Source: Escherichia coli
GTDB taxonomy: Bacteria > Pseudomonadota > Gammaproteobacteria > Enterobacterales > Enterobacteriaceae
Reading direction: 5' to 3' (one strand)
Assembly (NCBI RefSeq): GCF_003334305.1
Contig: NZ_QOWS01000005.1
DNA: 64,000 nucleotides
The number at the start of each line of letters is the position of its first letter. Position 1 is the first letter of the stretch. Under the pieces are notes generated by a model, which worked only from the letters and a program-made list of their open reading frames with translations, searched no databases and was not told where the DNA came from. Shown here piece by piece: positions 45,540-46,621 of this stretch. The translations under genes and the position numbers were made by a program.

Positions 45540-46561
45540 CGACGATAGTCGCGGAACGGGCCGTCAGCCACGGAGCGGCGTTCAATCAAGCGCGGATGCA
45601 CTTCAATGGACTGCGGTTCTTCACGTTTGTTGACGATACGATCCAACAGCATGTTGAACGCTGTTTCACCCAGCGAATCTTTTGGCTGGTGGATCGTGGT
45701 CAGCGCCGGCGTAAAATAGCGGGCGTTGCGCACGTTATCATAACCGATCAGCGAAACATCCTGCGGGACGCGCAGACCCATTTCATCAGCAGCACAAAGT
45801 GCGCCCATTGCCATGATATCGCCACCACAGAAGACGGCAGTAGGGCGATGCGGCTGCGACAGTATTTGCTGCATGGCGCGATAACCAGATTCGGGTTCAA
45901 AGTCACCCTGAACAATCCAGCTTTCCGGCACCTTGATCATCGCTTCTTCCATCGCCTTCATAAAACCGGCAAGGCGGCCTGCGCCGGTGTTACGTTCCAG
46001 CGGGCCGGGGATGACGCCGATTTCGCGGTGACCGCGTTCAATCAGATAACGCCCGGCCATGTAGCCGCCTTCGAACGCGTTATCAATGACCGCATCGGTG
46101 AAGTCAGCTTTTGCTTCACCCCAGTCCATCACCACCATTGGGATATGGCGATACTCTTCCAGCATCGCCAGCAACGGCTCTGGGTACTCAGAACACATCA
46201 CCAGCAGACCATCGACGCGTTTTTGCGCCATCATCGACAGATAAGCCCGCTGTTTCTCAAGATTGTTCCACGCATTACCCAGAATCAGGGTGTAACCTTT
46301 CTGGAAGCAATTTTTTTCAACCGCTTCAATGATCTCGGCAAAATAGGCCGCTTCGCTGCTGGTCGCCAGCAAACCGATAGACTTGGTGTGGTTAACCTTC
46401 AGGCTACGCGCCACCGCGCTAGGGGAGTAGTGTAATTCTTTAATCGCTGCCCACACGGCGTTGCGCGTTTCTTCAGCGACGAAACGTGTTTTGTTGATTA
46501 CGTGTGACACAGTTGTAGTGGAAACGTTTGCTCGTTTCGCTACATCTTTTATTGTTGCCAT
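45536..46561 (-). CDS. purR: Purine repressor, LacI family
   Basis: 341 aa starting [28 protein letters not shown]. Confidence 0.95.
46518..46533. promoter_or_regulatory. PurR operator O2 (inside the purR coding region)
   Basis: Minus strand GAGCAAACGTTTCCAC matches the PUR-box core GCAAACGTTT. Confidence 0.55.
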
Positions 46562-46605
46562 TCCATTTCACTCCAGACCCTAACTTCAGCTCCTGCAAAA
46601 TCGCA

Positions 46606-46621
46606 AGGTAAACGTTTGCCT
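46606..46621. promoter_or_regulatory. PurR operator O1 (purR 5' leader)
   Basis: Minus strand AGGCAAACGTTTACCT matches the consensus ANGCAAACGTTTNCNT at every specified position. Confidence 0.7.

Follow-up and report, generated by a model that had tools for sequence, protein, structure and literature searches.

Introduction

Together with hypoxanthine or guanine, PurR acts as a dimeric repressor of the LacI family that lacks the tetramerisation helix of LacI. The original study of the autoregulation of its own gene, purR, reportedly located one operator (O1) in the 5' untranslated region and a second (O2) in the coding region. PurR is said to have bound both sites in vitro, with a footprint at O2, O1 being bound roughly six-fold tighter than O2 and without cooperativity; autoregulation was reportedly two- to three-fold, needed both sites and was lowered by synonymous mutations that destroyed O2.

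For the purR sites described below, two later papers (PMC5110547, PMC3548332) cite Rolfes & Zalkin 1990 (J Bacteriol 172:5758), whose title, in the form in which they give it, speaks of two required sites downstream of the promoter. A third paper (PMC13328217) also cites work on these sites. In vivo, a ChIP-chip study found a PurR peak at purR only when adenine was present, and the one motif assigned to that peak, AGGTAAACGTTTGCCT, is O1 read on the plus strand; O2 is not listed (Cho et al., PMC3159470).

A close relative in another gene is the PurR operator of purB (He, Smith & Zalkin 1992; He & Zalkin 1992), where PurR likewise binds a PUR box that lies inside the gene's codons and downstream of its promoter. 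It is a single site deep in the gene, whereas purR combines a leader site with one in codons 10-15, and the regulated gene is the repressor's own. PurR at purB is the classic roadblock, and two reviews count PurR among the roadblock repressors. The lac operator O2 in lacZ resembles purR O2 in being a weaker auxiliary operator embedded in a coding sequence; LacI, however, is a tetramer that loops O1 to O2, whereas PurR is a dimer and the spacing of its two sites is not conserved in helical phase. Intragenic sites make up less than 1% of those known for the LacI family. Operators of GalR (consensus GTGNAANCGNTTNCAC) share with PUR boxes the 16-bp LacI-family palindrome with a central CG, and GalR is present at both purR boxes in vivo (PMC5110547).

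The purR locus

The stretch of DNA analysed here (the window, 64,000 nucleotides) is part of the Escherichia coli chromosome, with the annotated genes in the order punC, punR, purR, cydH, ydhP, sodB. Positions 45400-47200 are 100% identical to several RefSeq genomes and have a match in all 5426 of 5426 complete E. coli genomes; the annotation of purR was read off such an identical genome. Residues 2-341 of the encoded protein match the purine repressor chains of the PDB (1pnr, 1qpz and others) with an E-value of 9e-231; the product, a purine repressor of the LacI family, is the protein that binds to O1 and O2.

The prediction from which we started, made from the letters of the window, had proposed two PUR-box operators, one in the purR leader and one inside purR codons. 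The minus strand carries both 16-mers, and the start and end claimed for the pair coincide with their outer edges (Table 1). The second box was placed at about codons 10-15, which is accurate: it runs from the second position of codon 10 (Arg) through Ala11, Asn12, Val13 and Ser14 to the second position of codon 15 (Thr), and thus lies in the helix-turn-helix of PurR itself. These are the operators already in the literature, in the same organism, gene and sequence, with no difference from the object of Rolfes & Zalkin 1990.

Table 1. Positions of the purR boxes and of neighbouring or further features in the window
Feature	Position	Strand	Remarks
purR CDS	45536..46561	minus	341 aa; from the ORF list; RefSeq 'HTH-type transcriptional repressor PurR'
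O1 (PUR box, purR leader)	46621..46606	minus	AGGCAAACGTTTACCT (plus strand AGGTAAACGTTTGCCT); 45-60 nt upstream of ATG
O2 (weaker PUR box, inside purR)	46533..46518	minus	GAGCAAACGTTTCCAC (plus strand GTGGAAACGTTTGCTC); CDS nt 29-44
purR leader segment, O1 to start codon	46562..46605	minus	Shine-Dalgarno GGAG at 46574..46571
purR codons 15-19, 3' of the O2 box	46503..46517	minus	reduced synonymous variation
5-codon ORF at the purR start	46549..46566	minus	MEWQQ*; dropped as translational feature
TATAAT	46777..46772	minus	rejected as purR promoter
Further PurR matrix match	15495..15510		ACGCAAACGATTTACT; divergent ydiK/ydiJ intergenic region
RF02081 'STnc550' match	46562..46952	plus	396.5 bits
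'HPnc0260 bacterial antisense RNA' match	37689..37851	plus	112 bits
RprA match	13925..14032		Rfam
rydB match	19636..19696		Rfam

The GGAG block in the purR leader is kept across genera in the upstream alignment. The five-codon ORF that overlaps the purR start (ATG GAA TGG CAA CAA TAA, with its ATG at 46566, 5 nt upstream of the purR ATG) was dropped as a translational feature; other genera share its ATG in part only, and the ORF is probably non-functional. At their other ends, punR (plus strand, end 45539) and purR (minus strand, end 45536) converge with a 4-nt overlap of their 3' ends, and punR and punC, an activator and a purine nucleoside transporter, directly adjoin the gene of the purine repressor. 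The 5' region of purR, with both O1 and O2, also occurs in one E. coli plasmid record.

Motif scores and chance expectation

Both boxes fit the PurR motif ACGNAAACGTTTGCNT, with mismatches at one (O1) and three (O2) of its 14 specified positions. The core AAACGTTT is exact in both, and of the core GCAAACGTTTNC the 64 kb window contains two copies, one at O1 and one at O2, where 0.07 occurrences are expected; none of 100 shuffled windows contained at least two copies. A search of the window with the strict consensus ACGCAAACGTTTGCGT, allowing up to three mismatches, found O1 alone, with 0.6 matches expected, and so did no better than chance. We therefore derived a scoring matrix from published sites bound in vivo, namely the 28 ChIP-chip motif instances of Cho et al. 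2011 (PMC3159470 Table 1) minus that of purR itself, leaving 27, and symmetrised.

With this leave-purR-out matrix, O1 scores 20.98 bits and ranks first in the window (p 4e-8 per site; 0.003 matches expected per 64 kb); it would be the fourth of the 28 real PurR sites. O2 scores 11.92 bits and ranks third, with a p of 2e-5 that passes the P<1e-4 cut-off of Cho et al. Among the 28 real sites it would rank about 25th, inside their range of 7.9-23.8 bits and in its low tail. Neither box thus falls below threshold in a calibrated scan. Matches of the strength of O2 are, however, expected 1.3 times per 64 kb with an independent-base background and 2.5 times with a first-order Markov one, so that O2 is not significant in the window on its own and comparative evidence is needed.

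This chance expectation, together with the listing of O1 alone by Cho et al., would suit the view that O2 has no function and is a look-alike of a PUR box arising by chance from the coding of a LacI-type helix-turn-helix, with O1 the only site that matters. It is countered by the proximity of the two boxes, since only 0.006 matches of O2 strength are expected within 150 bp of O1, and by the title of Rolfes & Zalkin 1990, which, as cited, requires two sites. The comparative results that bear on this view are given below.

The second-ranking match of the window is a box of 16.6 bits (0.08 expected per 64 kb) between the divergent genes ydiK and ydiJ. Cho et al. 2011 (PMC3159470) report a PurR ChIP-chip region 'ydiJ/ydiK' without an assigned motif, and this box may be the site behind it.

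Conservation of the two boxes

For comparison we used the best 80 purR loci, one genome per species, all of which are from Enterobacteriaceae and encode proteins with 92-100% identity. In this set of best 80 loci, O1 and O2 are found at the same positions in 80 of 80 species. O1 is in every one of the 80 the top matrix match within 300 nt upstream of the ATG, starting 57-60 nt upstream and scoring 13-23 bits; it is identical to the E. coli box in 56 of them, and in the upstream alignment its invariant bases stand out from a leader that is otherwise poorly conserved. The second-best matrix match is always at CDS nt 29-44, as GCGCAAACGTTTCCAC in 44 and as GAGCAAACGTTTCCAC in 33 of the best 80 loci (together 77/80). 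The distance between the centres of the two boxes is 85, 86, 87 or 88 bp depending on the species, with 88 bp in E. coli.

Within E. coli, O1 is no more invariant than its surroundings: 30-mers around it are exact in 5416 of 5426 genomes, as against 5413 of 5426 for a neighbouring leader 30-mer. The O2 30-mer is exact in 5333 genomes as against 4396 for a coding control, a comparison that, with a single control, is too anecdotal to be given weight.

Protein and operator constraint on codons 11-14

If O2 is an operator, its codons should be limited in their synonymous choice, and the original prediction had indeed held that the coding sequence here is constrained by protein and operator at once. 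Over the whole of purR, synonymous codon entropy in the 80 species (best 80 loci) averages 1.03 bits, and 3.5% of codons have 0.1 bits or less. Codons 11-14 have entropies of 0.10, 0, 0 and 0.10 bits (mean 0.05), the lowest of all 274 four-codon windows, with GCA used in 79, AAC in 80, GTT in 80 and TCC in 79 of the best 80 loci. Nine orthologues with Gly12 and without O2 serve as a natural control, and in these the codons vary (GCG/GCC/GCA/GCT, GTT/GTC/GTG/GTA and TCC/TCT/TCG/TCA).

We also enumerated all 768 distinct 16-mers that encode R-A-N-V-S-T in the frame of O2 and scored them with the PurR matrix. The E. coli O2 is the fourth best of the 768, and the variant with a CGC codon for Arg, which is that of 44 of the 80 species (best 80 loci), is the best. 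Weighted by the codon usage of purR, the chance of reaching at least 11.9 bits among these encodings is about 0.01. The departures of O2 from the consensus on its right side (C13, A15 and C16) could be mended solely by changing Ser14 or Thr15.

The synonymous freeze, the rank among encodings and the natural control make a simultaneous constraint by protein and operator on the O2 stretch well supported at the level of sequence comparison, and the claim of the prediction stands on the lowest synonymous entropy and the near-best operator score. The same results argue against a chance look-alike, in which one would have to accept four consecutive synonymous sites frozen in 79-80 of 80 species (best 80 loci) of a gene otherwise near saturation, and a sequence that is the first or fourth best of its possible encodings. 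Two observations are more favourable to it: the right half of the box, GTTTCCAC, is ancestral coding, present in Gly12 lineages without O2, and one lineage with Asn12 has let O2 decay (see next section). On balance, we consider it very improbable that O2 is a mere by-product of coding.

Synonymous variation is also reduced in the five codons 3' of the box, codons 15-19, with entropies of 0.56, 0.10, 0.85, 0.65 and 0.0 bits against the mean of 1.03. This is seen in Enterobacteriaceae and is absent in the Gly12 lineages, and the 16-bp box offers no explanation for it. As the reduction reaches codon 19, some other constraint may contribute.

Residue 12 and the origin of O2

Outside the Enterobacteriaceae set we obtained nine further loci from other families of Enterobacterales, namely from Erwinia, Pantoea, Providencia, Yersinia, Xenorhabdus, Hafnia, Pectobacterium, Serratia and one metagenome-assembled genome (85% protein identity). 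All nine encode Gly12, in the context R-A-G-V-S-T (H-A-G-V-S-T in Yersinia), and O2 is absent from all nine, CDS nt 29-44 scoring -23 to -0.5 bits with the PurR matrix. Seven of the nine retain a box that resembles O1 but is weaker (7-13 bits), in most cases AGGCAAACGATTAACA at about 62 nt upstream of the ATG, and this fits a stepwise build-up with O1 first and O2 later.

Among the 120 best protein clusters, residue 12 is Gly in 95 and Asn in 21. The latter have at least 87% identity to E. coli PurR, save one at 80%, and the locus of this one protein (L091) has full O1 and O2 boxes. O2 is seen exclusively where residue 12 is Asn (Enterobacteriaceae loci L002-L081 and L091, as against L083-L090 and L093 with Gly12). 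The reverse does not hold: locus L094 (Logan SRR31186252 contig, gene at 701-1726), which encodes Lys10 and Asn12, has an O1 of 17.3 bits, and its O2 has decayed to AAGCAAACGTATCAAC, with 1.4 bits. Asn12 can therefore persist without the operator. One locus with Asp12 (L092, protein P0014) was set aside; it comes from a 1.6 kb metagenome contig of 0.4x coverage and has a divergent helix-turn-helix.

The sole outgroup evidence comes from a distant PurR (P0123, 55% identity) that passes the NCBI PurR equivalog cut-off and has Gly12, and at the same position 145 representatives of the LacI family have Gly in 93 and Asn in 22 cases. The residue counts, this outgroup and the family survey together indicate that Gly12, in the family-typical A-G-V-S turn, is ancestral and that Asn is a tolerated alternative. 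For the operator the residue makes a large difference: the best attainable score is 4.8 bits with Gly12 and 14.5 bits with Asn12, the highest of all 20 residues.

The right half of O2, GTT TCC AC, is already present in Gly12 lineages. It appears that a change from GGN to AAC at codon 12, together with GCA at codon 11, next to this existing stretch yielded the AAACGTTT core and completed the palindrome, and hence that the origin of O2 coincided with the exchange of an amino acid in the DNA-binding motif of the repressor itself. The replacement may either have been driven by the operator, or have been neutral and then exploited by O2. We put forward as a tentative reading, which we hold at somewhat less than even confidence, that O2 is an invention specific to Enterobacteriaceae that needed a change in the repressor: an operator for a repressor would have shaped the step from Gly12 to Asn in the DNA-binding domain of that same repressor and would have been frozen since. 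We did not find this reading of O2 and Asn12 stated in the searchable literature; the comparative study of the regulon by Ravcheev 2002 may contain it.

Occupancy by GalR

The overlap between PUR boxes and GalR operators raises the question of which repressor the boxes serve. If they were mainly GalR operators, or operators shared by PurR and GalR, purR would be tied to galactose or to GalR-mediated chromosome contacts. A GalR ChIP-chip peak at ynhF/purR (score 9.5) has been validated by ChIP-qPCR, and Tables 3 and 4 of the same study have both boxes at purR, the inferred GalR sites GTGGAAACGTTTGCT and AGGCAAACGTTTACC being exactly O2 and O1 (PMC5110547). In addition, the left half of O2 on the plus strand, GTGGAAAC, is a good GalR half-site, although this half is forced by the codons for Ser14 and Thr15. 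In the expression arrays of that study, however, there was little or no regulation of purR by GalR, and GalR-dependent regulation of the gene was not detected (PMC5110547). O1 is among the best-scoring PurR sites and fits the consensus of PurR far better than that of GalR, and its variants in other species drift toward the PurR consensus, those ending in ...ACGT and ...TCGT reaching 22-23 bits. GalR cross-occupancy of the purR boxes may well be real; that it is their main function, or that they are operators of both repressors alike, we regard as improbable, and PurR remains the protein for which we read them.

RNA families at the locus

The intergenic region between purR and cydH (ynhF) and the cydH ORF match the Rfam family STnc550, antisense to the purR leader (Table 1). 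The consensus structure of the family folds the O1 palindrome into a hairpin with six base pairs in the stem and four nucleotides in the loop, and O1 could accordingly be conserved as a hairpin of RNA, in the purR leader or in the antisense STnc550 transcript, and not as a protein site. Yet any DNA palindrome folds on paper, and RF02081 covers the whole intergenic region together with the cydH ORF, so that it was probably defined as the whole intergenic stretch. The variation of O1 itself is more telling. Some variants replace the C at position 15 by G or T, others the A at position 13 by T or C, without compensation at positions 2 or 4, and those ending in ...ACGT, ...TCGT and ...TCCT would break the stem yet raise or keep the PurR score, which identifies the palindrome as a protein site and not an RNA stem; PurR, moreover, occupies the site in vivo (PMC3159470). 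Conservation of O1 as an RNA hairpin is accordingly the least probable of the alternatives that we weighed. The STnc550 family looks like the cydH mRNA or the whole intergenic region and not like a discrete sRNA; a literature search for STnc550 found no paper.

Elsewhere in the window, the match to 'HPnc0260 bacterial antisense RNA' lies opposite the 5' end of ydhR and the first tRNA-Val gene. Further Rfam matches are to RprA, rydB and two tRNA-Val genes.

Mechanism of autoregulation

We consider O1 and O2 to be, with high probability, the autoregulatory operators through which PurR controls its own gene, and they correspond to the E. coli purR operators among the PurR sites of RegulonDB. The autoregulation from downstream operators that the original prediction had suggested was published by Rolfes & Zalkin 1990, to whom the two papers named above refer for these sites, and the ChIP-chip motif at purR agrees with O1 in every letter.

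With hypoxanthine or guanine bound, the PurR dimer would take the strong leader site O1, and at higher repressor occupancy the weaker O2 inside codons 10-15 would be bound as well. Since O1 and O2 would lie downstream of the purR promoter, bound repressor would block elongating RNA polymerase and not occlude the promoter, and the outcome would be a mild negative feedback on the level of PurR. The O2 stretch would be read twice: as codons it specifies the R-A-N-V-S-T turn of the helix-turn-helix, and as DNA it forms a half-consensus PUR box; the protein constraints on Ser14 and Thr15 would fix its non-consensus right half, and the operator would freeze the synonymous positions of codons 11-14.

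That both boxes lie downstream of the promoter is taken from the title of Rolfes & Zalkin 1990, in the wording cited by later papers. A consensus promoter scan of the minus strand found no sigma-70-like site in 46562-46860. A perfect TATAAT in this region (Table 1) was considered as the purR promoter and rejected, as it is not conserved across genera.

Two operators downstream of the promoter make an elongation roadblock the most likely mechanism, and the roadblock formed by PurR at purB leads us to infer the same at purR; by this analogy, we judge a roadblock at O1 and O2 to be rather probable. PurR could instead repress by looping the DNA between O1 and O2 or by interfering with initiation, with the boxes still being its operators. 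Two operators 88 bp apart do resemble the looping systems of lac and gal, and the promoter scan gave no position for the purR promoter relative to O1. Against this, the spacing of 85-88 bp among species does not keep the helical phase, which fits independent binding of O1 and O2 without a loop, and at purB a roadblock by PurR is established. With 341 residues PurR is, by what is known of the family, a dimer without the C-terminal tetramerisation helix of LacI, and its binding is reported to be non-cooperative. A loop between O1 and O2 is unlikely, and loop or initiation interference taken together have in our estimate a low probability, so that the roadblock is the reading we retain.

Conclusions

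The purR gene of E. coli is a textbook case of negative autoregulation, its operators lying downstream of the promoter and, in the case of O2, among the codons of the gene, and to this the confirmation adds no new biology. It does show that real regulatory sites can be recognised in a first reading of raw sequence. The additions made here are modest: the link between residue 12 (Gly or Asn) and O2, the cross-species test of synonymous sites and the enumeration of encodings. O2 is a clean natural example of DNA in which a peptide and a binding site have been optimised together, and if its proposed origin through the replacement of Gly12 by Asn is true, it would offer a neat case for studying the emergence of regulatory sites within genes.
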